This document shows, in pieces, positions 25,251 through 43,039 of a stretch of DNA of 56,735 bases (within the stretch, counting starts at the first letter, position 1; each line of letters begins with the position of its first letter). Made by a program: the position numbers and the translations under genes. This stretch comes from an uncultured Anaerolineales bacterium. Lineage in GTDB: Bacteria; Chloroflexota; Anaerolineae; B4-G1. The stretch spans positions 1-56,735 of the forward strand of contig CAZZEX010000021.1 of the NCBI GenBank assembly GCA_964653285.1, in the 5' to 3' direction. Under the pieces are notes generated by a model, which was given only the letters and a program-made list of their open reading frames with translations, made no database searches and had not been told where the DNA came from.

Positions 25251-25332
25251 ATTTTTGCCCTTCGCTCAATCCACCAACTTCCAATCATTATACCATCGGA
25301 GGTCAGGGAACGGAAATTCTGGAGGTGTCACC

Positions 25333-29274: not shown

Positions 29275-30697
29275 GAAAGTTGAGTCCCAGTACTTCAAGC
29301 GTCTGTCTGTACTTCTGCTGCTGGTTGCACTGGTGTTCCTCCTCGGTGGCCAAGCGGAATTTCACCGTCGCCAGATAGACCTGACGGCGTTGGACGTCAG
29401 AGCCATAGCCATTTTGATGGTCAGCCTGCTCCCCGCTGCTGTACTCAACTCGCTCCCGGCATTTGTGGCGCTGGTTGCCATCCCGTGGCTGGCCTCGCGT
29501 TTCATCTACACTCTCTACGACCCGAAGAACCTAAAGGAAGCCCACGAGTTCTTGCACCGTAACGTGTTTGGCATGGCGACGCTTAGGCCAATTCTGATCG
29601 TGAAAGAAGGGCACATCGCCGTTGGCGCGGGCAGCCTGTGCGACCGTATCGGTGGCCGCGGTTTCATGGTGGTCCACAACGACAGCGCGGTGGTGTTGGA
29701 AAAGGGGGGGCGTCTGACCCGTGTCGTGGGGGGGCCTTCTTTGGGTTTTCTTGAACGCTTCGAGCGGGTCTGGGAGGTCGTCGACCTGCGCCGTCAGCGC
29801 TGGCTCCTCACTGTTAACGGGATGACCAAGGAGGGCATCCCCATCGCCTGCCAGGCCGACATCACCTTCAAGATTGACGACCGGTTTGTTGATCAATGGG
29901 AAGATATGCAGCAAACGCTACCAGTCGAGACAGAGATCCAGCCATTCACGGATGCAGCGATCGCCGCGGAACTGGAGAAGGCCGGAATAGCGAAACCCCT
30001 CCCCTACACGGAGGAGGCGGTGTTCAAGGCAGCCACGAGCATCTGGGTCCGCGTCCGCCAACCGGACCATAAAGAGCAACTGAGGAAGTGGACGGGGCGG
30101 GTGGTGATTGGCGAGGTGGAAGGCACCTTGCGCTCCATCCTGGCCCGCTACCGGCTCGACTGGCTCATGCGGCCGTCCCAGCCGGGGCAAAAGCATCCCC
30201 GGGAGGAGATACGGGGGCTGTTGGAGCAAGCACTGCGCGATGCGTTTCCGGTGGGCAACCCCATCGGCGCCCGGATTCTCCACGTGGGCCTGGGGCGGAT
30301 TGACGTGAAGGACGAGAGGATCTCCACCCAATGGGTCAAAGCCTGGCAGGCCGGGTGGGAGCAGAGAGCGGTGGAGGGCCGGGCGGAGGGAGAGGCGGAG
30401 ATGGCGCGCCTGCAGGCGGCTCAGGTGCGGGCGCAGGCGGAGATGGCCCTGGCCCTCACAGAGGCGATCCGGCCGCTCGTTACCAGCGTAGAGGAATTCC
30501 CCTCCTACCTGCTCGCTATGCAGTTTATCGAGACCCTGCGGTGGATGGCCTACGACCCGTGGAAGCGGGTCTTCCTACCACCCGAGGCACTGCGGACGCT
30601 CGACGAACTGGAGAAGATGATGGATAAGGCGGGTGTATCTCCGGACGAGACCCGCTCGGAGATCAGACGGCTGCTGGCAGAAGCGAGAGAGACATGA
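29267..30697 (+). CDS. SPFH/band-7 domain membrane protein, paralog 2.
   Basis: ...GRGFMVVHNDSAVVLEKGGRLTRVVGGPSLGFLERFERVWEVVDLRRQRWLLTVNGMTKEGIPIACQADITFKI... is collinear with paralog 1. EA-rich coiled coil. ATG 29267 overlaps the upstream stop by 8 bp. The table ORF starts earlier at 29045. Confidence 0.7.
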   Translation: MRRKVESQYFKRLSVLLLLVALVFLLGGQAEFHRRQIDLTALDVRAIAILMVSLLPAAVLNSLPAFVALVAIPWLASRFIYTLYDPKNLKEAHEFLHRNVFGMATLRPILIVKEGHIAVGAGSLCDRIGGRGFMVVHNDSAVVLEKGGRLTRVVGGPSLGFLERFERVWEVVDLRRQRWLLTVNGMTKEGIPIACQADITFKIDDRFVDQWEDMQQTLPVETEIQPFTDAAIAAELEKAGIAKPLPYTEEAVFKAATSIWVRVRQPDHKEQLRKWTGRVVIGEVEGTLRSILARYRLDWLMRPSQPGQKHPREEIRGLLEQALRDAFPVGNPIGARILHVGLGRIDVKDERISTQWVKAWQAGWEQRAVEGRAEGEAEMARLQAAQVRAQAEMALALTEAIRPLVTSVEEFPSYLLAMQFIETLRWMAYDPWKRVFLPPEALRTLDELEKMMDKAGVSPDETRSEIRRLLAEARET

Positions 30698-30764: not shown

Positions 30765-31769
30765 TTGGCCATCGGAGGGAATATGATCAATTTGCCATCT
30801 ACACTAACCCCGTCCGCATTGCTTCGCCGCGAGGAACTACCACCATTCGTTGACGAACTGCTGCGAGGCTCCCGCTCGTTGCGCAGGGAGGGCAGGTTGC
30901 CGGAGGCCGAGCGGTGTGCGTTGGATGTCATAGAGGCCAGCCAGGAACCGGGCACCAACGTCAGCCAGGCGGTGGCCCTGATCCATCTGGCGGACGTGCA
31001 TCGTGAGATGGGCAAACTGAGACCGGCGCTGGTCGATTGTCAGAAGGCCTATCCCATCTTCCAACGCCAGCCGTCCCGCGATCAACGCCATAACGAGGCG
31101 GTAGCCGCCTATGCCCTCGGACTGGCGCACCAACTGCTCGGCAGCGAGATGGACGCGCTGAGGTGGTACCAGGAGGCGGCTCAACTGTTTGAGAGGGCCA
31201 GGGAGGACTGGGCCGCCGTCAATGCCCTGGCCCAGGTGGAGACCTGCACCCGCATCCGACGCTGGATGGAGACACTGAGCGAATACCTGACCGCTGCCCG
31301 GACCCGCAGCACGGATGCGAACCTCGGCACTGGCGTCTGGGTGCCCGTCGTTCCCTCGGACGGCGACGGAGGTGAGTTCGCCATAGTAGAGCTGAGGATA
31401 GACCAGTACAGGTTAGAGCGGGAAGCGACGGTCAACGGGGAATCGTTCCGTGTACACCCCCTGAGGGGAACCCGACGCATCTCCCTGGTGCCTGGCGTCG
31501 AGTATTATGCCTTGCAGGTTCCCGATGAAGCGCGCGGGCCTTTAGGCGCTGGCGAGGGAGACTATGCGCTGGTAGTTCGGAAGAAGGACGCAGATCGAGA
31601 GGGCCCCGGCGTGCTGGAGACACTCAGTGGGCCAGAGTTTGGCCATTTCGAGCGCGACGATGAAGGCAATATCAACTTTATTCGTCCTGATGCCCAGGTG
31701 ATCGGCGGCAAGGACATCGGCGAGGATTTCCAGGTCGGGTACATCAACGCACTGCTGAAGCCAACGTAG
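30765..31769 (+). CDS. Hypothetical protein with a TPR-like helical N-terminal half and a beta-rich C-terminal domain (possibly a degenerate LexA/S24-like fold).
   Basis: Helical repeats (AVALIHLADVHREMGK..., AYALGLAHQLLGSEMDALRWYQEAAQLFE). C-terminal GDYALVVRKKDA...GNINFIRPD recalls the S24 beta-barrel but lacks the Ser of the Ser-Lys dyad. Confidence 0.5.
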   Translation: MAIGGNMINLPSTLTPSALLRREELPPFVDELLRGSRSLRREGRLPEAERCALDVIEASQEPGTNVSQAVALIHLADVHREMGKLRPALVDCQKAYPIFQRQPSRDQRHNEAVAAYALGLAHQLLGSEMDALRWYQEAAQLFERAREDWAAVNALAQVETCTRIRRWMETLSEYLTAARTRSTDANLGTGVWVPVVPSDGDGGEFAIVELRIDQYRLEREATVNGESFRVHPLRGTRRISLVPGVEYYALQVPDEARGPLGAGEGDYALVVRKKDADREGPGVLETLSGPEFGHFERDDEGNINFIRPDAQVIGGKDIGEDFQVGYINALLKPT

Positions 31770-31948: not shown

Positions 31949-33286
31949 ATGAACTCCATTGAGATTCGGCGGCGCTTCGTGGACTACTACGAAGGACATG
32001 GGTTTCACCTGCTCTCTCGTGCTCCCATGCTCCATCCCTCAATCCCCATGTCTTTTGTGATGAGCGCCGGTCTGGTTCAGGTGGAAACTTCGCTGGCCCG
32101 GGCAGAGGAAAGGCATGGCGATCAGTTCGTCCTCGTGCAAGAGTGTTTCCGCCACTTCGATCTCGACAAGGTGGGTACTGATGGCACTCACCTTAGTCTG
32201 TTTGAGATGCCTGGAGCATTCGTTTTCGGGCCAAACGGAAAAGCAGAAACTGTTCGGCGAATGTGGATACTGGCAACCTCGGTCTTAGGGATAGATAAGA
32301 GCCGCATCTGGGTCTCGTACTTCAAGGGTGGAAAGATGTTGGGCGATTACCTGCCGGGTGACGAGGTGACACGCCAGGCATGGGTCAAGGTGGGGATGCC
32401 TGAGAACCGGATTGTCGGGTTAGTGGACGACAACTATTGGGTGCAAGGCGGTGGTATTGATGGGATGGAGACGCCCCGAAAAGCCGGCCCAAACACAGAG
32501 TTGTTCTACGACAGAGGGGTCGAGAGAGCATGTGGGCCAGATTGTAGACCGGGCTGCAAGTGTGGGCGTTTTGTAGAGTTCTCCAACTCCCTGTTCATCT
32601 GCCGCGAACAGGATTCACAGAGCAGGTCTCTCCGCCCGATGGCGGAACCCTTCTCCGAAACTGTCATTGGCACTGAGCGAGTGGCGATGATATTGCAGGG
32701 CACTCAATCGGTGTTTGACACAGATACCTACCGACCGATCATCACGGCTGTGCATGGTTTCGTTCGCGCACCTGACCTGCCAGAACCGTTGCTCACCGCA
32801 AGCGAACGAGTGATAGCCGATTATCTCAAGGCACTCTACTTCCTGGTGGCAGATGGCGCTCCTCCGCCAGGTAAAAACGGGCGAGAGCGCATCATCAAGA
32901 TATTGATTCGAGGTGTGATAGCGCGGCAGGTCATCCTGGGCATTCAATCCAAGGAGTTTCTGCCCACACTGATAGATTGCATTTCCCAGACGGTTCACAG
33001 CAGTTTGCGAGCGACGCCGGAGGAAGAGAGGCGACTGGTGTCCTACTTCTCAACCGAGTCACAGCGTTTCTCAAAGACCATTGAGCGTGGACGTCGCCAA
33101 CTACTGCGGTTCCTGAAAGAGAACGATGGACGCACGCTTTCTGGCCCGCAGATTGTCTGTCTGGAAAAGAAGTGGGGCCTGCCACGCCTTCTAACTGCCG
33201 CAATGTTGCGGGAGAAGGGATTGGTGTTTACGGAAGCGGAGTACGGAGAGGCGTTGGAGGTCTGGAAGCAGCAGCCCCATAACTGA
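31949..33286 (+). CDS. Stand-alone alanyl-tRNA-synthetase catalytic-core paralog (class II core plus tRNA-recognition helical domain, no editing or C-Ala domains). 445 aa.
   Basis: Collinear with the AlaRS N-terminus: IRRRFVDYYEGHGFH, motif-2-like CFRHFDLDKVGTDGTHLSLFEMPGAFVFG, ELFYDRG, FVEFSNSLF, RVIADYLKALYFLVADGAPPPGKNGRERII. Ends about 440 aa where the AlaRS editing domain would start. Confidence 0.8.
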   Translation: MNSIEIRRRFVDYYEGHGFHLLSRAPMLHPSIPMSFVMSAGLVQVETSLARAEERHGDQFVLVQECFRHFDLDKVGTDGTHLSLFEMPGAFVFGPNGKAETVRRMWILATSVLGIDKSRIWVSYFKGGKMLGDYLPGDEVTRQAWVKVGMPENRIVGLVDDNYWVQGGGIDGMETPRKAGPNTELFYDRGVERACGPDCRPGCKCGRFVEFSNSLFICREQDSQSRSLRPMAEPFSETVIGTERVAMILQGTQSVFDTDTYRPIITAVHGFVRAPDLPEPLLTASERVIADYLKALYFLVADGAPPPGKNGRERIIKILIRGVIARQVILGIQSKEFLPTLIDCISQTVHSSLRATPEEERRLVSYFSTESQRFSKTIERGRRQLLRFLKENDGRTLSGPQIVCLEKKWGLPRLLTAAMLREKGLVFTEAEYGEALEVWKQQPHN

Positions 33287-33437
33287 ATCTGCATACCTGG
33301 GAATCGTGTGCCGCAACTACATTGGTGGCCCGTTTCACTAATCCGCAACAGTGCTGTAACTCAAACGAAATCCAAAGAATGTTGACTCTGAGTTATACTA
33401 ATGCTGAGGACATAAGGATGGCGAGGAGAGTGACCCA

Positions 33438-36400
33438 ATGACCATCTCTCAAGAACTTGACAGAAAACAGTTCTTTCAACCGGTGGTGGAAACCATCAGT
33501 CTGACCCTGAGAATGCCGGCCTGCATCTGGCTTGCTGATGAGACTGGAGAAGCCCTCTGGATTGCCGCAGCTACGGAGGAGTTATCAGATGATTACATCC
33601 GCAAGGCGGTCTTGCGCCTGGATGAACCCAGCGTTGCGTCCGAAGTGGTTGCAGAACGCAAAACGGTCGTTGTGACAGACATTGCCTCCGATGACCGCTG
33701 GAAGTACAAGCCCGAAGCCGCTGACATGGGGTTGAAATCGGCTATGGTGGTACCATTGCAAGTCAAAAACAAGATCGTGGGCGTGCTTGATGTCTATGCC
33801 GACGAAGTAAGAGATTTCAGCGATTCCGAGAAGGCGCTGATTGAGGGCTTCGCCACCCAGATAGCCATCACGCAGCGTCGGATTCGGGATTTGGCGGTTT
33901 TGAACGAAGTGAGCCTGCTAATCAATTCCGAGTTACGCCCCTCCGATCTTTTCAAACGCATTGTGCAAGCCGCAGAAAGGGTGCTGGATTGTCAGCACGT
34001 CAGCATATTCCTGGTGGATAAGAGCGGTGACCTGGTGTTGGAGACCGCCTCGTCAGCAGGCATCGCACGACAGCGGTTCGCCCAAGGGGTCGGGTTGGCC
34101 GGGTGGGTAGCTAAAACCAAGCGCTCAGAACTCGTCCCGGATGCAGTCAAGCACCCCCAGTTTGTCCCCGGTCTGTCGTCAGAACTCATCAAGCGCTCGA
34201 TGTTGCTGTCGCCTATGCTCTTCAAGGACAAGGCTATTGGCGTGATCTCGGCTGATATGGACGGCCTGGGCGGCTTCAATGAGCATGATCAGATGTTACT
34301 GGAGGCATTGGCAAGTCAAGCCGCCGTGGCTGTACGCAATGCGAGATTGTTTGAGCAGCGGGAATTGCTTCGAGAGATCGCTCGGGACGTCACCAAGGTG
34401 CGAGGAACAGAAGAACTTCTGGAGGAGATATTAAGACGCTCCTTGACTTTGCTTGATTGTGAGGTTGGTTCGATTGCCCTGTTGAATGAGACTACCGGTG
34501 AACTGGAGTTTCGCTATGCGATTGGCAAGTCCGTCGGGATCTGCCTTCCGGTTGATAAGGGGCTCATGACTGCGGCGGCCCGAGAGCGTAGGCCGGTGCG
34601 AATCGGGGACGTTACGAAGGATAAGAGGTATGTTTGTCACGTAGACTCAACGCGCTCTGAACTAGACATGCCCTTGCTGGCACGTGGGAAGGCGATCGGA
34701 GTGCTAAACTTCGAGAGTCCATACTACAATGCCTTTGATGAGGACGATGAGATGTTGGCTCATGCATTGGCCGACCATGCAGCAATCGCCCTCTACAATG
34801 CACAGCAAGGTGAGCGGCTAAGTACGCTAGTCAAAGTAGGGCAAGATTTGACCTCCGAAATCCATTTGGAACGGGATGAGATACTAGAGTTGATCTACGA
34901 ACAAGCCCGCAGACTAACGGGTACTCAAGACATGTACATCGCCCTGTACGACGATGAGTCGAACAGAATCCGCTTTGGGTTGGCAATGGAAGATGGAAAA
35001 CGAGTAGAAGTAGGTGTAGGCGGATGGTCTCCCCGTGAAGCCGATCTGGAAAAAAGAGGGAAGACGGAAGAGATCATCCTGATCAAAGAGCCAATCCTGC
35101 ACAGGACGCTGGACGAATCGACAAAGTGGTATGAGGAGCCTGGACACAAGGAATTCCTCGGTCGAGTCGCTACATCTTGGATGGGTGTTCCCATGGTTCT
35201 AGGGGACAGGGTTCTAGGCGTGATCGCCATCTACGATTGGGAGCGCGAGTACGCCTACGACGAGCAGGATCTGCAGGTCATATCCTCTATGGCCAGCCAA
35301 GCCGCGATTGCTTTGGATAATGCAGATCTATACCATCGGCGTCTCAAGGGTCTGGATGCGCTGAACCAGGTGGGACAGGTCCTTAGTTCCAGTGTTTGGC
35401 TGGAGCAAACGGAGATACTAGAGTTGATCTACGAACAAGCCCGCAGACTAACGGGTACTCAAGACATGTACATCGCCCTGTACGACGATGAGTCGAACAG
35501 AATCCGCTTTGGGTTGGCAATGGAAGATGGAAAACGAGTAGAAGTAGGTGTAGGCGGATGGTCTCCCCGTGAAGCCGATCTGGAAAAAAGAGGGAAGACG
35601 GAAGAGATCATCCTGATCAAAGAGCCAATCCTGCACAGGACGCTGGACGAATCGACAAAGTGGTATGAGGAGCCTGGACACAAGGAATTCCTCGGTCGAG
35701 TCGCTACATCTTGGATGGGTGTTCCCATGGTTCTAGGGGACAGGGTTCTAGGCGTGATCGCCATCTACGATTGGGAGCGCGAGTACGCCTACGACGAGCA
35801 GGATCTGCAGGTCATATCCTCTATGGCCAATCAGGCGGCAATCGCGCTGAACAATGCAGCTTTGTACCAGCAGGTGGAGACAGTGCGGAGCGTTGCCAAC
35901 GCCATCACTACAGAGTTGGACCCGCAAGCCTGTATGGAACGTATTCTTGACGAGACGATGAAGCTATTGGGTGTCCATTACGCTACCATTCAATTGGTAG
36001 ACAAGGCGACCGATGAACTGGTCATACGTGCACAGAGAGGCGTAGAAGGGAGGATACTGGCACCTGATCTATACAGAATCAAGATAGGCGAAGGAATCAC
36101 AGGTGTAGCAGCCCAGGGTAAGCGGACGATTAGAGTGGGCAACGTGGACGATGTCGGGTACTATCTGGATTACATTGAGGGCACGCGCTCAGAAATGGCA
36201 ACGCCGTTGATCCAGCGTGGGGAAGTGATCGGTGTGCTTAACGTAGAGGATCCAAGAGAAAATGTTTTTGATCAAGACGACGAAGATTTATTCGAACTGC
36301 TGGCGGAGGAAGTAGTGGTCGCGATCCAGAATGCTGCGCTCTTTGAAGAAAAGGATCAAGCTCTAAGGTCGCTGCGGGAGGAGCAAAGGAAAAGCAGGGC

Positions 36401-37085
36401 TGCCGAACGTTTAGCAGCAGTAAACACCGTAGCGGCAGGGTTTGTGCATAGAATGAACAATGTTGCTGGCACGATACCGGTGCGTGTTGGGCAAATCAAA
36501 GAACTGTTGGATCCAGGCGATCCGAAATATTCCAAGATTGCCCATTTTCTGGGTGCTATAAACAGGGATGTCGATGGCATCCTCAGAACCGCGAAGACTA
36601 TTAGGTCATCCACCGAAGCCACGGAACCTCTCGAGCTGGTAAATGTTGCTCTTCTGGTTTCCAGTGCAATCGAAAGAATCGCATTACCCACGGGCATAAC
36701 AGTCTGCAACCAGTGCGAGCAGGATCTGCCCGACGTGCTTGTTTTCAGCGGTAAGCTCATAGATGCTCTAGAGAACCTTATTCGAAATGGCATTGAAGCC
36801 ATTAAAGGGTCGGGTTCAGTTACTATAGCATGCAGAACATCGGTGAAAGAGGATCAGGAGTGGGTAGCCATTGAGATAGAGGATACAGGCCGTGGCATTT
36901 CTTCCGAGGATTTGCCCAGGATCTTTGACCTGTTCTTTTCCACCAAGGGTGGAATGGGCTTTGGCCTTTGGGGAGCCAGAACGCTTGTCGAGAGCCTGGG
37001 GGGCAGGATTGACGTATCAAGTGAGTTCGGTAAAGGTACGACTTTCACGATCCTTCTACCGGTGGAGAAGGAGGCGCAGAGATGA
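33438..37085 (+). CDS. Cytoplasmic multi-GAF sensor histidine kinase (about 6 GAF domains plus HisKA plus HATPase_c).
   Basis: Repeated GAF signatures. H-box ...AAGFVHRMNNVAGTIP.... ATP-lid/G-boxes IEDTGRGIS, GGMGFGLW. No TM segments. Confidence 0.9.
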   Translation: MTISQELDRKQFFQPVVETISLTLRMPACIWLADETGEALWIAAATEELSDDYIRKAVLRLDEPSVASEVVAERKTVVVTDIASDDRWKYKPEAADMGLKSAMVVPLQVKNKIVGVLDVYADEVRDFSDSEKALIEGFATQIAITQRRIRDLAVLNEVSLLINSELRPSDLFKRIVQAAERVLDCQHVSIFLVDKSGDLVLETASSAGIARQRFAQGVGLAGWVAKTKRSELVPDAVKHPQFVPGLSSELIKRSMLLSPMLFKDKAIGVISADMDGLGGFNEHDQMLLEALASQAAVAVRNARLFEQRELLREIARDVTKVRGTEELLEEILRRSLTLLDCEVGSIALLNETTGELEFRYAIGKSVGICLPVDKGLMTAAARERRPVRIGDVTKDKRYVCHVDSTRSELDMPLLARGKAIGVLNFESPYYNAFDEDDEMLAHALADHAAIALYNAQQGERLSTLVKVGQDLTSEIHLERDEILELIYEQARRLTGTQDMYIALYDDESNRIRFGLAMEDGKRVEVGVGGWSPREADLEKRGKTEEIILIKEPILHRTLDESTKWYEEPGHKEFLGRVATSWMGVPMVLGDRVLGVIAIYDWEREYAYDEQDLQVISSMASQAAIALDNADLYHRRLKGLDALNQVGQVLSSSVWLEQTEILELIYEQARRLTGTQDMYIALYDDESNRIRFGLAMEDGKRVEVGVGGWSPREADLEKRGKTEEIILIKEPILHRTLDESTKWYEEPGHKEFLGRVATSWMGVPMVLGDRVLGVIAIYDWEREYAYDEQDLQVISSMANQAAIALNNAALYQQVETVRSVANAITTELDPQACMERILDETMKLLGVHYATIQLVDKATDELVIRAQRGVEGRILAPDLYRIKIGEGITGVAAQGKRTIRVGNVDDVGYYLDYIEGTRSEMATPLIQRGEVIGVLNVEDPRENVFDQDDEDLFELLAEEVVVAIQNAALFEEKDQALRSLREEQRKSRAAERLAAVNTVAAGFVHRMNNVAGTIPVRVGQIKELLDPGDPKYSKIAHFLGAINRDVDGILRTAKTIRSSTEATEPLELVNVALLVSSAIERIALPTGITVCNQCEQDLPDVLVFSGKLIDALENLIRNGIEAIKGSGSVTIACRTSVKEDQEWVAIEIEDTGRGISSEDLPRIFDLFFSTKGGMGFGLWGARTLVESLGGRIDVSSEFGKGTTFTILLPVEKEAQR
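34877..35828. repeat. Perfect 418-bp direct repeat with 534-bp period (34877-35294 equals 35411-35828), an in-frame duplication of one GAF domain inside the kinase gene.
   Basis: Identical antisense ORFs are reported at 34914/35448 and 34925/35459. Aligning the two copies shows divergence only after ..ATGGCCA (SSMASQ vs SSMANQ). Confidence 0.9.
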
Positions 37086-37471
37086 GCGACAGACGCATTC
37101 CCCGTATCCTGGTCGTGGACAGCGAGCCCAAGTGGAGTCAAGCGGTAAAAGCCACTTTGGAAGAACATGGGAAGTACTACGTTGTAAATGTCGGTGATAG
37201 TGAGACTGCTTTGAAATCTTCCTATGGTGACGGCTTTGACCTCATCCTCATCAATGCTACCCTTGCCCTTGGAGAGAACATGCCCAAGTTCGAGGAGATA
37301 GTGCGTCTATACGCAGATAAGGTACTGGTCATTTCCGACGTGCGTTCGATATCAACGGCCATAAAAGTGTTTAAGATGGGAGCGGACTATGCAGAGAAGC
37401 CGTTCGAGCCAAGACGAGTCATAGATCTGGTAGCGAGTCGCTTGCAGCAGGCATACGGAACTGCGAGCTAG
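37082..37471 (+). CDS. Single-domain receiver (REC) protein, likely a pseudo-receiver (phospho-acceptor Asp replaced by Asn).
   Basis: ILVVDSEPKW...FDLILIN(ATLALGE)NMP...VLVISD...EKPF. T/S and K are conserved; D57-equivalent reads N and D13-equivalent reads S. Start overlaps the HK stop (ATGA). Confidence 0.7.
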   Translation: MSDRRIPRILVVDSEPKWSQAVKATLEEHGKYYVVNVGDSETALKSSYGDGFDLILINATLALGENMPKFEEIVRLYADKVLVISDVRSISTAIKVFKMGADYAEKPFEPRRVIDLVASRLQQAYGTAS

Positions 37472-37494
37472 CGTCACACGAGGAGGAGAGTAAA

Positions 37495-38352
37495 ATGGAG
37501 ACCTTACCCCAAGACCGTCCACGCGTGCTCATTGTGGATGATCAACCGAACTGGCGGGAAGCGTTGTGCGAATTACTGGATCCCACCAAGTACGAGATTG
37601 AGACAGCAGCCAGCTACGATGAGGCCAAGCGTAAACTACGGCAACGCGCCTTCCACGTACTGGTGGCTGACCAGAGGCTGGTGGACGCTCAGGTGAACAA
37701 CATACAAGGCATCCTTTTGTTGGACGAAGTGAACAAGCTTCGGGATGGAACCCAGGCCATCATCGTGACAGGTTATCCGTCAATCGAGGCGGCCAAGGAT
37801 GCACTGAAGGGGCGTGCTGCCTACGACTACATATTTAAGTCCCCGGAAGAGAGTGAGCCGCCATTCAATATCCAGTACCGGGAACGGGTTAAAGAAGCCA
37901 CCGAGGAGGCGGAGCTGGAGCGACAGAAGGCAATTACGTTGGGCTTTTCAGTGTCGTCACTGATCGCGGGCTTAACTTATGAGCGAATTGCTGAAACCTT
38001 GTTCCCCGCAGGCACGGTGTCCCAAGATTTGCTGGAGGGTGTTAAGAGAGTGCTACATAGGCTACTTTACCCGCTCCAGCCCTTGGCGCGTCAGATGGGT
38101 AGAGTTTGGCTGTCGGAGTCAGATCAAACATGTGAGGTTCTTTGTTGGAGTAGAAATCGCGGCAAAGCAGCTTTGATCAGGATCGGTAGAGAAAGACTCT
38201 CGTTAGACGACCGTAAACCCGAATGGCTTAAGGAGAGTTGGCGTTCGATTAAGGACGAGCAGTTCGCGTCCGTTCCACTTGTAGGAATCTCGTACACGAT
38301 TGATGATATGATGTTTGAGGACTTCGTAGCTTTGGTTAAGGAAGAAGATTAG
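37495..38352 (+). CDS. Receiver domain protein with a roughly 150-aa uncharacterised C-terminal domain (no HTH).
   Basis: VLIVDDQPNWREAL...HVLVADQRL...IIVTGYPS...IFKSP. The C-terminus is unassigned. Confidence 0.7.
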   Translation: METLPQDRPRVLIVDDQPNWREALCELLDPTKYEIETAASYDEAKRKLRQRAFHVLVADQRLVDAQVNNIQGILLLDEVNKLRDGTQAIIVTGYPSIEAAKDALKGRAAYDYIFKSPEESEPPFNIQYRERVKEATEEAELERQKAITLGFSVSSLIAGLTYERIAETLFPAGTVSQDLLEGVKRVLHRLLYPLQPLARQMGRVWLSESDQTCEVLCWSRNRGKAALIRIGRERLSLDDRKPEWLKESWRSIKDEQFASVPLVGISYTIDDMMFEDFVALVKEED

Positions 38353-38353
38353 T

Positions 38354-39358
38354 ATGGGACCGAAGCCGAAGAAGCGCATACTGGTGATAGAGGATCAACC
38401 TAATTGGCAGGACCTAATTGGTGAATTGATCCAGGAAGTCGCTGATGAGATTGGATGCGCAATCGAAGTGGTGATCGCGACTCGCTTTGTGGAGGCATTG
38501 AAGAGCATCGCGGCAACGTTCTACGACTGTGTTACTGTTGACAACGCTCTCCCGGATGGCAAGATGGCAAGGGCGCTAATCGATCGTATCGGGAATCTTG
38601 GCTACAGAGTTCCAGTTGTCGTTGTAAGCGGACAGGTGAAACCAAGCGACGTTGGAGATTTCTTCCAGGACTACAGAATTGACGGGTTCTTTTGGAAGGG
38701 AGAAGATTTCGAGCCGAAGAAATTCAAAAACACACTTGCAAGGCTACTCGCGCCTGTCAAGAAAGGTGAGGAACTGCAAGGACTGCAGCGCAAGGAAAGA
38801 GGAGACAGACTTATGGACTGGAACACAATCATTAGCCTGGCTGTATCCGCTGTGTCACCGTACGCCGTCGCATTTGCGACGAGCGCCGCAACTGTCGCTG
38901 GAAAGGAGCTGGTCGAGACAGCTTCCGAAAGTATTAAAAGGCTGTGGCAATGGATTAATCAGACTATCAGCAAAAGCAATGATAAGTCCGCTAGGAAAGT
39001 ATGGGAGGGCTTCAAGAAGGATCCCCGTAGCAACAAGGATGCTTTGGTTGACGCCATCTGGCGGCTGAGTCCAGATGATGATACGGTTCTGCGCGGATAT
39101 GTGCGGGGGCTCATTCAGGAAGTGCAACTCCGAAAAGGCGCACTGTTGTTTTCTTTGCTTGACAATCCCGACTATTACACCTTCAACGATCTGAAGCGTA
39201 TCTGCAGTCGAGTTAGCCCGCAATGGGAAGGCGAGACAGGGCCCCCGACGCGTGAGGGCTTGGCACGCTGGGTCGTCACCTATGTTCCAACAAGGAACAG
39301 ACAGCAAGATTTGATTGCAGCCATGCTGGAAGTGAATCCAACCGTAATGCTGCAATAG
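38354..39358 (+). CDS. Receiver domain protein with a helical middle region and a C-terminal module resembling an effector-associated (EAD/death-like) domain.
   Basis: ILVIEDQPNWQDL...CVTVDNALPDG...VVVVSGQ...FFWKGEDF. C-terminal ...YTFNDLKRICSRV...GETGPPTREGLARWVVTYVPTRNRQQDLIAAMLEVNPT fits the F..eL..lC...G......r.kA.eLV.y.e..r.....L...L pattern of EAD-type adaptor domains. Confidence 0.65.
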   Translation: MGPKPKKRILVIEDQPNWQDLIGELIQEVADEIGCAIEVVIATRFVEALKSIAATFYDCVTVDNALPDGKMARALIDRIGNLGYRVPVVVVSGQVKPSDVGDFFQDYRIDGFFWKGEDFEPKKFKNTLARLLAPVKKGEELQGLQRKERGDRLMDWNTIISLAVSAVSPYAVAFATSAATVAGKELVETASESIKRLWQWINQTISKSNDKSARKVWEGFKKDPRSNKDALVDAIWRLSPDDDTVLRGYVRGLIQEVQLRKGALLFSLLDNPDYYTFNDLKRICSRVSPQWEGETGPPTREGLARWVVTYVPTRNRQQDLIAAMLEVNPTVMLQ

Positions 39359-39450: not shown

Positions 39451-40113
39451 ATGACCCAAGACATCATCGCCCTCCTAACCGCCTTCGCCTACGTCTTCGC
39501 CATGATCGGCGTCGCCGAGGCACTCCGCAAGTGGCGCGGCTACTCGGTCGAGTTCACGCGCAAGTTCATCCACATCGCGGTCGGCATGTGGGCCTACGGG
39601 ACGGTGCTGCTGTTCGAGCACCGCACCTTCGCCATCATCCCGCCGCTGGCGTTCGTCGCCATCAACGGTTTCTCCTACTGGCGCGGGACGTTCAAGGCCA
39701 TGGAGACCGGGGAAAAGGGACAGTTGGGCACCGTCTACTTCCCCATCTCGTTCGTCGTGCTCATCTGGCTGCTGTGGGACCGCCCGCATTTGCTGGTGGC
39801 GAGCCTGATGCCGATGACCTGGGGGGATGCACTGGCCGCCGTGGTGGGACGGCGCATCGGCCAACGGCGCTACACTGTCGCTGGAAGCACCCGCTCGCTG
39901 GAGGGGTCGGTGGTGCTGTTCCTCATCAGTTGGGCGGCGACGCTCGTGCCACTTATGCTGCTGGCTCCGGAGCCCATTAACCCGGCCGCCGCAGTGGGAA
40001 CCGCGGCCGTGACGGCACTGGGCGCAGTGGTCGTCGAGGCGGTCTCGCCGTGGGGCATTGATAATCTGACCGTGCCAGCAGTCTCAGCGCTGGTGCTGGT
40101 GTGGATGTTGTAG
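39451..40113 (+). CDS. Polyprenol/phytol-kinase-like membrane protein (DGK1/SEC59/VTE5, CTP-dependent kinase family).
   Basis: Polytopic protein with FTRKFIHIAVGMWAY and C-terminal ...RSLEGS...TALGAVVVEAVSPWGIDNLTVP, typical of the phosphatidate-cytidylyltransferase-like kinase family. Confidence 0.65.
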   Translation: MTQDIIALLTAFAYVFAMIGVAEALRKWRGYSVEFTRKFIHIAVGMWAYGTVLLFEHRTFAIIPPLAFVAINGFSYWRGTFKAMETGEKGQLGTVYFPISFVVLIWLLWDRPHLLVASLMPMTWGDALAAVVGRRIGQRRYTVAGSTRSLEGSVVLFLISWAATLVPLMLLAPEPINPAAAVGTAAVTALGAVVVEAVSPWGIDNLTVPAVSALVLVWML

Positions 40114-40117
40114 GAGA

Positions 40118-40200
40118 GTAAATGGGTGAATGAGGAAAGGGTAAATGAGGAGACCCATCTACTCATTCCTCATCTACTCATTCCTCATTTACTCATCTAC
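40118..40200. terminator. Hairpin and direct-repeat region between convergent genes (GAATGAGGAA ... TTCCTCAT xN; TACTCATTCCTCAT repeated).
   Basis: Inverted repeats seen directly, located between the stop of the kinase-like gene (40113) and the stop of the minus-strand gene (40197). Confidence 0.4.
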
Positions 40201-40991
40201 TCACTCACCTCCTCCGTGATCAGGAACTGGGCGATGCCCTGCAGCCGGGCCTCAATGAAGACGTGAATCTCGCAAGTACCCGGTTCCCAGCCCCCCGGCG
40301 GCTTACAATAGTACGAGTTACGTCCGTGCTCGCCCCAATCCCGCCCCTCAACCAACCCCCAAAGCCACGTGTCCGAGCAGAAATCTATGAACTCCCCATC
40401 TCTATACCAGGCAAAGGTCGTCACGACGCCGTTCTCCATCCCTTCGTAGGTGAAGAATAGGTACACCCGGTGATCGCCCGGTGGGAACTCGGTGCCCGGA
40501 TCCACAGGCTCACCGCTATCGTCCTGGTCGGCGGCCAGGGTGATGACGGCGATACGTGCATCCTCTCCGGCCGGCACGGCTGAGGGCAGCGGCGTCAGCG
40601 CCATATCGGGCAGGGGGGCGGCCGGCGTGGGCGTGGGGATCAAGGGCGGGGTCGCTGTGGGCCGGCGGGTAGGGGTGACAGTTGGCGTGCGGGTGGGGCG
40701 CGGGGTAGGCGTGAGCGTGATCGTTGGGGTCGCAGTCGGGGCAGGGATGGGGGCAGGCACGATGACCGCCAGGTACAGAGCCGCGATCAGCAGAGCGATG
40801 GCCGACGCCTGTAGCACCAGCGATGTCAGGAGCCAGCGCTTGGCCCGCCTGAGGGCATCCCGGCGCATGGCATAGTACGGGGCGTGGCGCGCCTTGACGA
40901 GTTGAGAGATGACCAGCCCTACCGGGATGGCGGAAGCGATCAACAACGCGTAAGCAGCCCAGCGTATCAGGCTCAGAGTCAGGGGGGTCAA
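40197..40991 (-). CDS. Membrane-anchored protein with a Pro/Thr-rich linker and a Cys-containing C-terminal domain. Function unknown.
   Basis: Two N-terminal TM helices, PTATPTITLTPTPRPTRTPTVTPTRRPTATPP linker, C-terminal domain with four Cys. Confidence 0.55.
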   Translation of the reverse strand: MTPLTLSLIRWAAYALLIASAIPVGLVISQLVKARHAPYYAMRRDALRRAKRWLLTSLVLQASAIALLIAALYLAVIVPAPIPAPTATPTITLTPTPRPTRTPTVTPTRRPTATPPLIPTPTPAAPLPDMALTPLPSAVPAGEDARIAVITLAADQDDSGEPVDPGTEFPPGDHRVYLFFTYEGMENGVVTTFAWYRDGEFIDFCSDTWLWGLVEGRDWGEHGRNSYYCKPPGGWEPGTCEIHVFIEARLQGIAQFLITEEVSE

Positions 40992-41101: not shown

Positions 41102-43039
41102 CTACAGGTGCTCCTTGACGGCCAGGGCCACAGTACGGGGGATGCCAGGCACGGCGGCCAGTTGCTCGACGCTGGCTGCGCGGATACCATTGAGGGAGCC
41201 GAAGGCTTTAAGGAGCGCCTTACGCCGCGCCGGCCCCACGCCGGGGATGCTGTCTAGTTGCGACGCGACCCCCGCCCTGCGCCGGCGCGCGCGGTGGTGC
41301 GTGATGGCGAAGCGGTGCGCCTCGTCCCGCACGCGCTGCACGAGAAAGAGCCCCTGGGAGCGACGGGGGAGCAGAACAGGCTTGACCCGTCCTGGCAGGA
41401 AAATCTCCTCGCGCTGCTTGGCCAGGGCCGCCACCGGCACCCTGGCGAGCAGATCGAACTCCTGCAGCGCCTCGACCGCCACACCCAACTGCCCTCTGCC
41501 ACCATCCACGACGAGCAGGTCGGGCAATTTGGCCCAGCCTTTGATACCCCCCTCAATCCCCCCTCCAGGGGGGAGGCTTCCCTTGATACCCCCCTCAATC
41601 CCCCCTCCAGGGGGGGGAGCACCCCCCTCAATCCCTCCTACGAGGGGGGAGGCTGACGCGGCGGTCTGCCAGCGGCGGAGGCGGCGCTGCAAAACTTCGC
41701 GCATGCTGGCGTAGTCGTCCTGGCCCTGCACACTGCGCACGACGAAGCGTCGGTATTCGGACTTGCGGGGCACACCCTGGACAAAGACGACCATGCTGCC
41801 GACTACTTCCGTCCCCTGCGTCGTAGAGATGTCGTAGCACTCAATGCGTATCGGAGGCCTGGGGAGTTCCAGCGCCTTCTGGAGTTCGGCCAGTGCCTGC
41901 TCGTGCCTGTGGGCGTCGGCCTGCCACTGGGCACGCAGGGCGGCCAGCGTCTCGGCGGCGTTCTTGGCCGCCAGTGCCACCAACTCCCGTTTCTGACCCC
42001 GGCGGGGCACGCGCAGCGTCACCTTGGCCCCTCGCTTCCCCTTCAGCCACTGCTCGATGACCAGTGCCTCCTCGATCTGCTCTGGCAGCAGCACCTCGGG
42101 CGGGACGTAGGCGGCCTCCTCGTAGAACTGCTTGAGGAAGGCAGCCATCACCTCCCGCTCGTCCTCGTCCTGCGCTCCCTCCAGCACAAAGTACTCCCGT
42201 CCCAGCAGTTTGCCCCCTCGGATGAAGAAGACCTGCACGCAGGTGTCGTCTTCTTCGCGAGCGAAGGCGATCACGTCCTGGTCAGTGCCGGCCGATGAGA
42301 CGATCTTCTGCCGCTCGACGACGCGTTGCACCGCCTGTAGTTGATCGCGCAAGGATGCTGCCTGCTCGAAGTCCCATCCATCGGCAGCGGCCTGCATCCG
42401 CGCCTCCAGGTCTGCGATCACTTTCTCACTGCGACCTTCGAGGAAGTGGACCAGCCCCCGGATCATCGCGCGGTACGCGTCTTGTGTCACTGCGCCGATG
42501 CAGGGTCCCAGGCAGAGTTTGATGTCGTAATACAGGCAGGGCCGCTCGTCGTGACCGGTGATCTCCCGATTGCAGGTCAAGTATGGGAATGACTTGCGCA
42601 GCAGGTCGAGCGTCTGGTGCATGGCCGAGGCGGAGGTGAAGGGGCCGAAGTAGCGGCTGCCGTCCTGTTCCATGCGGCGGGTGATGAGTACCCTGGGGAA
42701 CGGGTCGGCCCAGGTGATCTTGATGTAGGGGTAACGCTTGTCGTCCTTGAGGCGCACGTTGTAGCGGGGACGGTGCTGCTTGATCAGGTTCGCCTCCAGG
42801 ATCAGCGCCTCCAGTTCCGAATCGGTGACGATGAACTCCAGATCGGTGATCTCGGACACCAGCGCGTGCACCTTGGGGTTCTCCTGGGCCGAGGCGTGGA
42901 AGTAAGAGCGCACGCGGGCGCGCAGGTCAACTGCCTTGCCCACATAGATGACGGCCCCGCTCACGTCGCGCATCAGGTAGACGCCCGGCTTGCGAGGAAG
43001 TGTCTCAATCTGGGTCCAAATGTGCTCTGGGAAGTTCAT
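41102..43039 (-). CDS. uvrC: Excinuclease ABC subunit C.
   Basis: GIY-YIG N-terminus (KPGVYLMRDVSGAVIYVGKAVDLRARV), UvrBC-interaction region, RNase-H-like/endoV domain, HhH2 C-terminus. Contains an in-frame repeat insert at 41521-41650. Confidence 0.95.
   Translation of the reverse strand: MNFPEHIWTQIETLPRKPGVYLMRDVSGAVIYVGKAVDLRARVRSYFHASAQENPKVHALVSEITDLEFIVTDSELEALILEANLIKQHRPRYNVRLKDDKRYPYIKITWADPFPRVLITRRMEQDGSRYFGPFTSASAMHQTLDLLRKSFPYLTCNREITGHDERPCLYYDIKLCLGPCIGAVTQDAYRAMIRGLVHFLEGRSEKVIADLEARMQAAADGWDFEQAASLRDQLQAVQRVVERQKIVSSAGTDQDVIAFAREEDDTCVQVFFIRGGKLLGREYFVLEGAQDEDEREVMAAFLKQFYEEAAYVPPEVLLPEQIEEALVIEQWLKGKRGAKVTLRVPRRGQKRELVALAAKNAAETLAALRAQWQADAHRHEQALAELQKALELPRPPIRIECYDISTTQGTEVVGSMVVFVQGVPRKSEYRRFVVRSVQGQDDYASMREVLQRRLRRWQTAASASPLVGGIEGGAPPPGGGIEGGIKGSLPPGGGIEGGIKGWAKLPDLLVVDGGRGQLGVAVEALQEFDLLARVPVAALAKQREEIFLPGRVKPVLLPRRSQGLFLVQRVRDEAHRFAITHHRARRRRAGVASQLDSIPGVGPARRKALLKAFGSLNGIRAASVEQLAAVPGIPRTVALAVKEHL
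41521..41650. repeat. Three tandem copies of a G/C-rich palindromic unit (..ATACCCCCCTCAATCCCCCCTCCAGGGGGG..) inserted in-frame in uvrC, encoding (P)PGGGIEGGIKG x3.
   Basis: Direct inspection. Insert lies just before the conserved UvrC LVVDGGRGQL motif. Confidence 0.75.

Follow-up and report, generated by a model that had tools for sequence, protein, structure and literature searches.

The 56,735-nucleotide stretch of Anaerolineales DNA analysed in this study (hereafter, the window) contains a low-GC cassette of five genes that, judging from sequence comparison, is best read as belonging to a widespread and hitherto undescribed family of cytoplasmic two-component systems. The outputs of the cassette, which are the C-terminal domain of the second receiver protein (REC2-C) and an EAD7-like tail on the third, are predicted interaction modules. 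The window would therefore hold an adaptor-only variant of a two-component conflict or stress (programmed-cell-death-type) system that is gated by a paralog of alanyl-tRNA synthetase (AlaRS) and is analogous to Detocs. We give this reading a probability of about 0.55. No description of an AlaRS-like/GAF-kinase/receiver family was found in the searchable literature.

Gene layout and composition

The cassette runs from the AlaRS-like gene through the REC3 gene (31949-39358) and includes the following features.

31949-33286, + strand: AlaRS-like paralog, 445 aa, first gene of the low-GC cassette (PF01411, 220 bits)
33438-37085, + strand: sensor histidine kinase, 1215 aa, with GAF domains in six stretches, a putative DHp region and HATPase_c (84 bits)
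34878-35829, + strand: internal GAF-unit duplication in the kinase gene (repeat search and base-by-base check)
36447-36449, + strand: codon of His1004 (FVHRMNN), the presumed autophosphorylation site (motif search, inspection by eye and NCBIfam core alignments)
37082-37471, + strand: REC1, stand-alone pseudo-receiver, 129 aa (PF00072, 34.1 bits), with a start codon that overlaps the stop codon of the kinase gene (ATGA)
37495-37848, + strand: REC2 receiver domain (PF00072, 52.7 bits; alignments; VDDQPNWR hallmark)
38017-38349, + strand: REC2-C, a C-terminal domain of a helix and a five-stranded antiparallel sheet
38354-38728, + strand: REC3 receiver domain (PF00072, 30.0 bits, just under the cut-off; alignments)
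38813-39142, + strand: first part of the REC3 tail; residues 154-183 form a weakly hydrophobic stretch of Ala/Ser/Val, and a helical region comes next
39143-39355, + strand: EAD7-like C-terminal helical adaptor of REC3, residues ~264-334 (PF19960, hhalign)

The genes in the ORF listing were identical to those called independently on the public contig to which the window belongs, which bears out the first-pass annotation of a multi-GAF kinase followed by three tightly packed receiver genes. The kinase and REC1 genes overlap by 4 nt (ATGA), and the spacings between REC1 and REC2 and between REC2 and REC3 are 23 and 1 nt, respectively. The GC content of the cassette is 52.6% vs 62.5% for the rest of the window, and GC3 is 57-63% vs 73-87%. 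This low-GC block, from the AlaRS-like gene through REC3, is best read as the functional unit on the basis of composition and gene order. The AlaRS-like gene is counted within the unit because the next gene is a same-strand GAF kinase ORF in 62-63 of 65 metagenome loci.

Three genes upstream of the cassette encode possible partners.

27580-29274, + strand: SPFH/Band_7 membrane protein 1, 564 aa (PF01145 on the public gene call; hydrophobic N-terminal segments)
29267-30697, + strand: SPFH/Band_7 membrane protein 2, 476 aa (gene call; faint PF01145 match)
30783-31769, + strand: TPR protein, 328 aa (TPR_12 and TPR_1 matches; C-terminal ~160 aa without a family)

In 10 of 31 loci, SPFH genes lie ahead of the cassette, a position that homologs of SPFH protein 2 occupy in L008, L017 and L038-L052. 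The TPR homolog of L046, encoded at the same position, has an additional N-terminal bona fide EAD7 domain (64.7 bits). The linkage of the SPFH and TPR genes is partial, and their GC content in the window is host-like (60% for SPFH protein 1). Both SPFH proteins and the TPR protein are possibly accessory to the cassette and not part of its core.

Multi-GAF histidine kinase

The kinase is predicted to be cytoplasmic, and no transmembrane segment was noted. Its residues 980-1214 align to the kinase cores of AtoS, ZraS and PrsK in NCBIfam, and Pfam HisKA was not detected in the profile search of the kinase. The GAF duplication consists of a 418-nt segment (34878-35295) and a perfect copy of it at 35412-35829, which gives a 534-nt period. 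The number of GAF domains varies in the family, since orthologous kinases span 836-1603 aa.

AlaRS-like paralog with a remodelled amino-acid pocket

The AlaRS-like paralog consists of the aminoacylation and tRNA-recognition domains without an editing or C-Ala domain. Its PF01411 match spans profile positions 1-421 of 552, and its alignment to Escherichia coli AlaRS spans residues 4-432. The canonical alanine pocket (D235, G237 and V214) is replaced in 13 of 13 orthologs by D235E, G237V and V214L. The same 13 orthologs share a signature in which R69, W170 and N212 are kept, the AGGK loop is deleted and a new four-cysteine cluster is present; the motif-3 arginine is also kept. These alignments indicate that the family has a remodelled amino-acid pocket and that the gene encodes a paralog, not the housekeeping enzyme.

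Assignment to housekeeping AlaRS (the TIGR00344 equivalog) was rejected at 214 bits vs a cut-off of 457, with a match to profile positions 1-413 of 847 only.

The pairing of the AlaRS-like gene with the GAF kinase is nearly invariant across the 65 loci. A functional link between the kinase and the upstream AlaRS-like gene had only been suggested in the first-pass annotation and became the strongest result of the analysis. The role of the paralog, as sensor, enzyme or effector, is a matter of conjecture. As a sensor partner, it would draw on its retained tRNA acceptor-stem domain and remodelled amino-acid pocket. Similar logic is known elsewhere: GCN2 is a kinase regulated by a HisRS-like domain, and HisZ is a HisRS paralog that serves as a regulatory subunit. 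The hypothetical likeness is a functional analogy, not homology, in which a catalytically altered class II synthetase paralog senses a ligand or tRNA and thereby controls another enzyme. The cases differ in synthetase family, in kinase type (Ser/Thr vs His) and in domain of life, and the cassette components are separate proteins.

The paralog may instead be an enzyme. It would pass the alanine (or glycine) of an aminoacyl-tRNA on to a small-molecule or protein acceptor, or synthesize an aminoacyl-adenylate or a nucleotide of the Ap4A type; its product would be read by the kinase GAF domains, or the kinase pathway would control the enzyme. A published model for the transfer reaction is AcmF, a truncated AlaRS-like aminoacyl-transferase of ascamycin biosynthesis that takes Ala-tRNA without activating alanine and holds the alanyl moiety through a Glu (D232E) (PMC12945691). 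Compared by published description, AcmF and the window paralog share the truncation to the aminoacylation and tRNA-recognition domains and an Asp-to-Glu change at the position where the amino group of alanine is bound (D232E in AcmF and D235E in the paralog). AcmF also carries N219Q, whereas the AlaRS-like family keeps the equivalent Asn (N212) and adds G237V, V214L and the four-cysteine cluster. The retention of R69, W170, N212 and the motif-3 arginine favours an enzyme, as does the ability of GAF domains, six of which are found in the kinase, to bind small molecules. However, G237V and V214L should fill the amino-acid pocket, and no biosynthetic or acceptor-substrate genes were found near the paralog among its window neighbours. 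AcmF belongs to a nucleoside-antibiotic cluster, whereas the AlaRS-like family is tied to a kinase and not to biosynthetic genes. On balance, we regard an enzymatic role as unlikely.

The enzymatic alternative overlaps with the preferred reading and differs from it in the first step only.

Receiver motif and the REC1 pseudo-receiver

The three receivers carry an unusual motif, VDSEPKW in REC1, VDDQPNW in REC2 and IEDQPNW in REC3. The presence of this PNW-type motif in all three, as first annotated, was confirmed; the paralogy argued from it was not, given that the receiver domains are 19-27% identical in pairs and no closer to one another than each is to CheY. The motif is thus a family hallmark and not evidence of recent paralogy, and sequence comparison identifies it as a mark of the whole receiver family that adjoins such kinases.

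A catalytic receiver has a quintet of two acidic residues, a phospho-acceptor Asp, a Thr/Ser and a Lys. REC2 (D15, D16, D59, T92 and K115) and REC3 (E13, D14, D63, S92 and K115) carry the full set. REC3 scores just below the PF00072 gathering score (30.2 bits), and its orthologs pass it. REC1 has D13, S14, N58, S85 and K106 at these positions and departs from the quintet, so it is a pseudo-receiver that keeps Ser85 and Lys106. The claim that REC1 is an Asn-type pseudo-receiver had been made to depend on the register of the Asn, which was examined by pairwise MAFFT alignment with CheY and by profile alignment. Both place Asn58 at the D57 position, and Ser14 occupies the D13 position. The Asn is conserved in orthologs with 69-78% identity, which sustains the claim. 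The first receiver after the kinase has N, S or G at the phospho-acceptor position in the related clade, and 35 of 40 cassettes encode a receiver in which the phospho-acceptor Asp is missing. Among receiver domains in general, 2% lack this Asp (PMC12632262).

Non-enzymatic output modules of REC2 and REC3

Pfam and NCBIfam profile searches found no HTH or enzyme domain in REC1, REC2 or REC3, in agreement with the initial view that the receivers lack DNA-binding and enzymatic outputs. In REC2 (285 aa, 37495-38352), residues ~120-285 returned no Pfam or NCBIfam family. REC2-C is rare (15 clusters among 1.84 billion representatives) and contains motifs, including CWSR and QPLA, that are invariant across orthologs. 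It aligns only to the N-lobe of TCAD9 and has no catalytic lobe; neither a Pfam match to TCAD9 (PF19974), an APH-like kinase known from ternary conflict systems, nor the complete kinase fold with its catalytic C-lobe was found. REC2-C is probably, by alignment, a remnant of a truncated TCAD9/APH-type kinase N-lobe without the catalytic lobe. The original description of a C-terminal domain outside known output families still stands; the fold is probably not wholly novel.

In REC3 (334 aa, 38354-39358), the first part of the tail is conserved in 20 homologs and reaches a maximum 19-residue hydropathy of 1.6. The same tail module is fused elsewhere to SPFH (P0018), TIR (P0104) or another REC domain. 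EAD7 (PF19960) is a small, all-helical, non-enzymatic domain related to EAD1/6/7. The last ~60 residues of REC3 match its profile weakly (12.1 bits, E=0.18), and nine of 10 homologs give sub-threshold matches at the corresponding place (12.7-20.3 bits; E=5e-4 to 0.11 in 8 of 10). The matches are always C-terminal and extend from profile positions 1-9 to 62 of 62. All tails score 12-20 bits, below the EAD7 gathering score of 32 bits. True EAD7 domains that pass this threshold occur at the N-terminus of the REC3 ortholog P0004 (86 bits) and in the L046 TPR homolog. An hhalign comparison of 30 tails with two true EAD7 domains gave a score of 25.4 over 67 aligned columns, against a shuffled maximum of 14.4 (P=2e-4). 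The tail residues that are invariant across orthologs include W291, L303, W306 and P329. The end of the REC3 tail is EAD7-like, a divergent adaptor predicted from sub-threshold but consistent matches, and the homolog and hhalign results support the EAD-like tail that had been proposed from its residue pattern. A second EAD7-like domain was not found within the 56.7-kb window.

These modules could also be remains of a decaying, formerly effector-bearing system in which REC2 is a truncated REC-TCAD9, REC3 has lost CHAT, REC1 is dead and the outputs are non-functional. The N-lobe-only match of REC2-C, with its missing catalytic lobe, fits such decay, as do the REC-CHAT-sized proteins of L009, L079 and L090 at the position where the window has a receiver with a tail. 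Against decay, the three ORFs are intact and have many full-length orthologs (41-78% identity) with invariant motifs, the tail module recurs in fusions with SPFH and TIR, and pseudo-receivers, far from being accidental, are almost always present in the family. A relic is highly improbable by our estimate.

A widespread family with variable effectors

The cassette family is represented by 265 loci in one metagenome collection and by at least four phyla. The AlaRS-like/GAF-kinase pair is found in Anaerolineae, Chloroflexia, Thermoflexia, Moduliflexus/UASB14, Sedimentisphaerales and Desulfobacterales genomes. Receivers come after 37 of 38 complete kinases in the metagenome loci; their number ranges from one to four, and they belong to a dedicated clade whose hallmark is VDDQxNWR. 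The full order of AlaRS-like gene, kinase, REC1, REC2 and REC3 also occurs in L004/5, L008, L048, L049, L079 and L090, so the gene order whose recurrence was to be checked is present in further loci. The last receivers have interchangeable outputs, which may be enzymes or adaptor domains; in the relatives they are usually fused to cell-killing or immune-type domains, whereas the window receivers have non-enzymatic modules only. The outputs of the relatives, which resemble PADLOC defence effectors, are as follows.

CHAT: L009, L039, L043 and L051
SLFN_AlbA_2: L039 and L054
TCAD9 kinase: L026, L051, L094 and L113
TIR: L018, L022 and L074
Nuc_deoxyrib_tr with EAD8: L012 and L013, with trypsin in addition in L012

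Such a variable-effector pattern, as read from domain content, is typical of conflict or cell-death systems. The first-pass view of a protein-protein adaptor system remains apt for the window outputs and is corrected in scope, as the window holds one variant of a much larger variable-effector family.

The cassette might instead encode an ordinary stress, nutrient or developmental two-component pathway of filamentous bacteria with no conflict or cell-death role. The receivers would then contact housekeeping targets, and the TIR, CHAT and Schlafen domains of the relatives would serve regulated proteolysis or nucleotide signalling in normal physiology. The window variant indeed has no toxic enzyme, its neighbours are housekeeping genes (UvrC, PfkB, UvrD and CysRS) with no defence island among them, and neither the kinase nor the AlaRS paralog matched a defence-system model in PADLOC v2.0.0. 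Chloroflexota commonly have GAF kinases and stand-alone receivers as well. However, the cassette is compositionally foreign, and close relatives whose AlaRS paralog is 84% identical have different kinases and effector sets. Moreover, swapping among TIR, CHAT, Schlafen, trypsin, TCAD9 and EAD is a signature of conflict systems (PMC7159879). We therefore consider an ordinary pathway improbable.

Relationship to known systems

Detocs is a defensive two-component system of DtcA, DtcB and DtcC (Rousset et al., bioRxiv 10.1101/2023.01.24.525353). Its likeness to the cassette family is one of architecture only: an operon with a cytoplasmic sensor histidine kinase, an extra stand-alone receiver that is proposed in both to guard against accidental firing, and a receiver joined to an exchangeable effector that kills the cell. 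The Detocs kinase senses by TPRs, whereas the window kinase has six GAF domains and is paired with an obligatory AlaRS paralog. As a phosphate sink, DtcB depends on its phospho-acceptor Asp, and REC1 cannot be such a sink because it has Asn at this position. Detocs effectors are mostly PNP ATP nucleosidases, in contrast to the CHAT, TIR, Schlafen, TCAD9 and trypsin domains of the cassette family and the adaptors of the window, and a cassette of this family contains up to four receivers.

Membership in Detocs was rejected by gene make-up (a GAF instead of a TPR sensor, Asn in the stand-alone receiver and non-enzymatic outputs).

The EAD-coupled, effector-diversifying conflict systems of multicellular bacteria (Kaur, Burroughs, Iyer and Aravind 2020/2021; PMC7159879, PMC8195603) share with the family the EAD7, EAD8, TCAD9, CHAT, TIR and trypsin domains, the use of a receiver as an effector-linked domain, the proposed coupling of separately encoded components by matching EADs, and a phyletic distribution biased towards filamentous bacteria. 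At the core of those systems are NTPases (STAND, MoxR-vWA and GAP1-type GTPases), whereas the cassette core is a histidine kinase and an AlaRS paralog. Histidine kinases were reportedly not found with vWA-associated effector receivers, and such receivers were later stated to occur independently of histidine kinases; the AlaRS paralog is mentioned in neither paper (PMC7159879, PMC8195603).

Proposed mechanism and implications

In the adaptor-only, AlaRS-gated reading, the AlaRS paralog would report the state of tRNA(Ala) or aminoacyl-tRNA, or make a small adenylate-type ligand for the GAF domains, and would control the kinase in the manner of the HisRS-like domain on GCN2. The kinase would autophosphorylate on His1004 and pass the phosphate to REC2 Asp59 and REC3 Asp63. 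REC1, predicted to be non-phosphorylatable and translationally coupled to the kinase, may occupy the kinase docking site or pair with the other receivers and thereby set the activation threshold. Phosphorylated REC3, via its membrane-proximal tail and EAD7-like end, would recruit the SPFH and TPR proteins encoded next to the cassette or a partner with an EAD7 domain from elsewhere in the genome. REC2 may contribute another interaction surface through its putative kinase N-lobe, which would be catalytically dead.

A bolder version gives the paralog the dedicated task of sensing whether tRNA(Ala) or aminoacyl-tRNA is intact or charged and of gating the kinase accordingly, as a bacterial counterpart of GCN2 logic. 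When phage or stress perturbs translation, cell arrest or death would follow from activation, through the phosphorelay, of caspase-like, TIR, Schlafen or kinase effectors or, in the window, of EAD adaptors. The near-obligatory Asn/Ser pseudo-receiver would be a non-phosphorylatable gatekeeper on the kinase, unlike the phosphate-sink receiver of Detocs. We put this version forward tentatively and consider it unlikely to be correct.

Detocs is the single studied case of a two-component system used directly as an immune or cell-death switch. The family described here joins histidine-kinase signalling to the EAD/TCAD/CHAT/TIR toolkit, which was earlier described as kinase-independent, and may reuse a kinase N-lobe and an EAD as bare adaptor modules. 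It also provides a natural series of pseudo-receivers (Asn, Ser, Gly and Thr) at a defined position that is useful for learning how pseudo-receivers work. Because its sensor side would be a recognizable tRNA-synthetase paralog with assayable ligands (tRNA, amino acid and ATP), the family may give a concrete, testable answer to the question of what such immune kinases sense.

Gene organization and extent of the cassette

The histidine kinase gene is followed by three co-directional, tightly packed genes encoding the receiver proteins REC1, REC2 and REC3. This arrangement, reported by the first-pass annotation, was reproduced by the ORF listing and by gene calls made independently on the public sequence containing the window (JGI Ga0307430_1000148 and NCBI DAOUEY010000159), and both sets of gene models agree.

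Genes of the kinase–receiver segment
33438–37085: kinase, 1215 aa, six GAF domains and HATPase_c
37082–37471: REC1, same strand as the kinase, receiver protein
37495–38352: REC2, same strand as the kinase, receiver protein
38354–39358: REC3, same strand as the kinase, receiver protein

The kinase and REC1 genes overlap by 4 nt (ATGA), and gaps of 23 nt and 1 nt separate REC1 from REC2 and REC2 from REC3, respectively. The functional unit exceeds the segment first noted (33438–39358) and comprises five genes, from a catalytic-core-only alanyl-tRNA synthetase-like gene (AlaRS paralog; 31949–33286, + strand) to REC3. The GC content is 52.6% over exactly 31949–39358 versus 62.5% elsewhere, and GC3 is 57–63% within this interval versus 73–87% outside. 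Promoter and terminator scans gave signals no higher than shuffled expectation.

The kinase gene contains a perfect 418-nt direct repeat (34878–35295 and 35412–35829) with a period of 534 nt, which corresponds to one GAF unit. The kinase orthologs are between 836 and 1603 aa long. The copy number of the GAF repeat could be an assembly effect because assembly breaks fall within the kinase gene in two further contigs of this organism.

Several other features were observed in the window. A long palindromic hairpin (40106–40213) lies between the convergent genes 39451–40113 (+) and 40197–40991 (−). The hairpin is considered generic because only sub-threshold microRNA-precursor models match it, and it is probably a bidirectional terminator. 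The UvrC gene (41102–43039, −) contains an internal GGIEGG / PPGGG repeat insertion in the linker region. A 1514-aa secreted-type subtilase (20744–25288, −) combines Peptidase_S8 and an I9 propeptide with CarboxypepD_reg and DUF11 repeats; an antisense 711-aa ORF (21878–24013) belongs to no family and is probably spurious.

Receiver domains and pseudo-receivers

The unusual P(N/K)W motif described previously is read in all three receivers, as VDSEPKW in REC1, VDDQPNW in REC2 and IEDQPNW in REC3. The hallmark (I/V)VDDQxNW(R) occurs on every receiver encoded beside these kinases, and D(I/V)RLxD...N and TGYP are also present in many of them. The motif had been taken to indicate that the three receivers are paralogs, but their domains are only 19–27% identical in pairwise comparison, no closer to one another than to CheY. 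The motif is located at the start of helix α1, the main kinase-docking surface of receivers, so a common interface with the kinase may account for its conservation no less than shared ancestry does. The receivers of the cassette family form a dedicated clade with variable outputs.

Active sites were placed by alignment to CheY, both directly and via a profile of 24 receivers. In REC1, Asn58 replaces the phospho-acceptor residue and Ser14 the second acidic residue, but Ser85 and Lys106 are retained. The active sites of REC2 (DD/D59/T92/K115) and REC3 (ED/D63/S92/K115) are complete. The Asn of REC1, proposed earlier from the sequence, is thus confirmed at the phospho-acceptor position, and it is retained in REC1 orthologs of 69–78% identity. 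Pfam and NCBIfam searches identified no DNA-binding or enzymatic domain in REC1, REC2 or REC3, in agreement with the original reading that no HTH or enzymatic output is evident.

Loss of the acceptor Asp extends across the family. Among 222 receiver domains from all fetched loci, the acceptor column contains 170 Asp, 31 Asn, 14 Ser, 4 Gly, 2 Thr and 1 Leu, and at least one receiver without Asp is encoded in 35 of the 40 cassettes with enough sequence 3′ of the kinase. For PF00072 domains in general, approximately 2% lack the Asp, and the usual substitute is Glu (PMC12632262). Two layouts are observed. In the first, which includes the window, a small pseudo-receiver (N, S or G) directly follows the kinase and precedes canonical receivers. 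In the second, a canonical small receiver leads, and the pseudo-receiver behind it carries an effector fusion, such as TIR. Pseudo-receivers are evidently a component of the cassette family and not an accident.

The AlaRS paralog and recurrence of the cassette

The AlaRS paralog (445 aa) aligns with residues 4–432 of E. coli AlaRS, which cover the aminoacylation and tRNA-recognition domains, and lacks the editing and C-Ala domains. Thirteen orthologs (39–76% identity) share a common signature. They retain R69, W170 and N212, lack the AGGK loop after R69, carry the substitutions V214 to Leu, D235 to Glu and G237 to Val, and have acquired a Cys cluster (C-x4-C-x3-C-x-C) ahead of the N212 strand. 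In E. coli AlaRS structures, D235 is the residue that holds alanine by its amino group, with G237 and V214 lining the pocket. No tRNA gene, T-box, riboswitch or other known RNA element was found near the AlaRS paralog. The only truncated AlaRS-like enzyme described, AcmF, uses Ala-tRNA as a substrate without activating alanine; it shares the truncated AlaRS-like core and the identical Asp-to-Glu change with the AlaRS paralog (PMC12945691).

The same five genes occur in the same order on other contigs (L004/5, L048, L049, L079, L090 and L008, an Anaerolineales MAG), with REC2 and REC3 orthologs of 58–65% identity and AlaRS paralogs of 52–76% identity. The gene order therefore recurs elsewhere, Chloroflexota included, which answers a check suggested by the first-pass annotation. 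A scan of a metagenome collection with an alignment of AlaRS-like proteins yielded 265 loci, 80 of which were fetched. In 62–63 of the 65 loci whose downstream sequence reaches 500 bp or more, the next same-strand ORF after the AlaRS paralog contains GAF domains, and receivers follow the kinase in 37 of the 38 loci with a complete kinase. Among species-representative genomes, the triad of AlaRS-like protein, GAF kinase and receiver is found in Anaerolineae, Chloroflexia and Thermoflexia, as well as in Candidatus Moduliflexus/UASB14, Sedimentisphaerales and one Desulfobacterales genome. Because the AlaRS–kinase pairing is near-constant across loci, the link to the AlaRS-like gene, advanced tentatively at first, is the best-supported statement on the locus.

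The C-terminal domain of REC2

The AlphaFold model of the REC2 C-terminal domain alone (REC2-C) is confident (pLDDT 89): a long helix leads into two short helices and one more helix, after which come an antiparallel sheet of five strands and a closing helix. Across 29 members there is no recurrent Pfam family, and REC2-C, searched with HMMER against 1.84 billion representatives, retrieved only 15 clusters. Twelve of them are REC plus REC2-C-type proteins (11 of about 260–290 aa and one 58-aa fragment), and the other three are repeat-protein artefacts; no TCAD9 protein was reached. A Foldseek search of the PDB with REC2-C gave no significant match, and profile searches of PDB sequences with REC2-C and with the C-terminal module of REC3 gave none.

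Receivers fused to the APH-like kinase TCAD9 are found among REC2 relatives, so a 38-sequence REC2-C profile was compared with the region preceding the catalytic lobe of three TCAD9 proteins. The two regions match with a probability of 72% (P = 3.4e-5, score 37.2); the maximum score of 30 column-shuffled controls was 17.8, and that of a reversed template was 11.2. Both contain RL(L/F)YP...QPLAxG, (V/I)-(K to R)-(F/I)-G and GG(I/V)xYS motifs. The equivalent of the ATP-binding Lys is not conserved in REC2-C. With odds somewhat better than even, REC2-C would be the remnant of a kinase N-lobe whose catalytic lobe was lost. The domain, previously called uncharacterised, indeed belongs to no Pfam family, but its profile resembles the TCAD9 N-lobe.

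A cryptic HTH of the LuxR/sigma-r4 type (GLTYERIAETL...VKRVLHRLL) was also considered for REC2-C and rejected. None of the HTH families turns up repeatedly in the 29 members, the putative turn differs among them in sequence and length, as does the beginning of the recognition helix, and the region aligns rather with the helix ahead of the TCAD9 N-lobe.

The REC3 tail and the upstream SPFH and TPR genes

The C-terminal tail of REC3 (∼180 residues) is conserved as a module and opens with an Ala/Ser/Val stretch of weak hydrophobicity (maximum hydropathy 1.6). The module is carried by PNW-type receivers, another receiver type (P0015/16), an SPFH protein (P0018) and a TIR protein (P0104). Its presence on SPFH/Band_7 and TIR proteins suggests a portable membrane-proximal adaptor. 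The last ∼70 residues give a sub-threshold EAD7 match in the window protein and in eight of ten homologs, always at the same place and spanning the whole profile. Comparison by hhalign with two true EAD7 domains, from the P0004 N-terminus (86 bits) and an L046 protein (64.7 bits), gave P = 2e-4 and a score of 25.4 against a shuffled maximum of 14.4. The EAD resemblance noted at first is supported by this match and its consistent position, and the tail end is called EAD7-like because it falls below the Pfam membership threshold. Searches with the tail HMM and a true EAD7 query detected no second EAD7-like domain in the window.

Two SPFH genes (27580–29274 and 29267–30697) and a TPR gene (30783–31769) lie upstream of the cassette. 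A homolog of the TPR protein at L046:4145–5482 has a true N-terminal EAD7 and likewise sits after the SPFH genes and before the AlaRS paralog. SPFH genes precede the cassette in 10 of 31 loci. The SPFH and TPR genes were rejected as core parts and are only possible accessories because of this partial linkage and their host-like GC content. The C-terminal ∼160 aa of the window TPR protein match no Pfam family or PDB sequence, and a 377-aa ORF without a Pfam match (26419–27552, +) lies directly upstream of the first SPFH gene.

Swappable outputs in related cassettes

In related loci, the last receivers are fused to CHAT (L009, L039, L043 and L051), Schlafen/AlbA_2 (L039 and L054), TCAD9 (L026, L051, L094 and L113) or TIR (L018, L022 and L074) domains, or to a deoxyribosyltransferase-like/TIR-like domain and EAD8 (L012 and L013, the former also with trypsin). 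These effector domains resemble PADLOC defence effectors (for example ThsB, bSEFIR, pAgo-associated TIR, retron-type proteases and LmuA); PADLOC defence models gave no meaningful matches to the core cassette genes. L039, L041, L043 and L051 encode AlaRS paralogs 74–84% identical to that of the window, with differing receiver–effector sets (Schlafen, CHAT and TCAD9). The kinase core was compared in L039 alone, where it is far more diverged from that of the window (E about 5e-15). Modules thus appear, from these sequences, to be shuffled behind a conserved sensor.

A second two-component set, with receivers fused or adjacent to PALP (pyridoxal-phosphate enzyme) domains, lies beside more distant cassettes (L035:11083–16725 and L036:9631–14304, −). 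The window also contains a PALP gene (25228–26310), which may be a coincidence.

Relation to known systems and proposed mechanism

Shuffling of modules behind a conserved sensor has been described for conflict systems of multicellular bacteria, in work that built these systems around NTPases and reported no histidine kinases with the vWA-associated effector receivers (PMC7159879). A follow-up paper states that such effector receivers occur independently of histidine kinases (PMC8195603). The nearest experimentally studied system is Detocs (DtcA/DtcB/DtcC), which combines a kinase, a stand-alone 'buffer' receiver and a receiver–effector (bioRxiv 10.1101/2023.01.24.525353). The two systems differ substantially. 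The Detocs sensor is TPR, whereas that of the cassette kinase is GAF. Moreover, the Detocs buffer receiver keeps a functional Asp, which is Asn in REC1, and Detocs effectors are mostly PNP, with no synthetase paralog in the system. Searches of full-text literature, with most subscription journals outside their scope, returned nothing relevant on AlaRS paralogs with histidine kinases, GAF, TIR, CHAT or Schlafen.

Onto the observed and conserved architecture, we place a hypothetical mechanism. The AlaRS paralog would provide the input, either by sensing tRNA or aminoacyl-tRNA or by making a ligand for the GAF domains, and the kinase would transfer phosphate to REC2 and REC3. REC1, presumably translationally coupled to the kinase and unable to accept phosphate, may act as a gatekeeper. 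Close to the membrane, REC3 may recruit either a partner carrying EAD7 or the SPFH/TPR proteins.

The finding first noted is real, and its interpretation was essentially right. The locus fits two known kinds, the defensive two-component system and the EAD-coupled conflict system, and is the adaptor-only form of a two-component system that is widespread, apparently undescribed, and would be gated by a tRNA-synthetase paralog.
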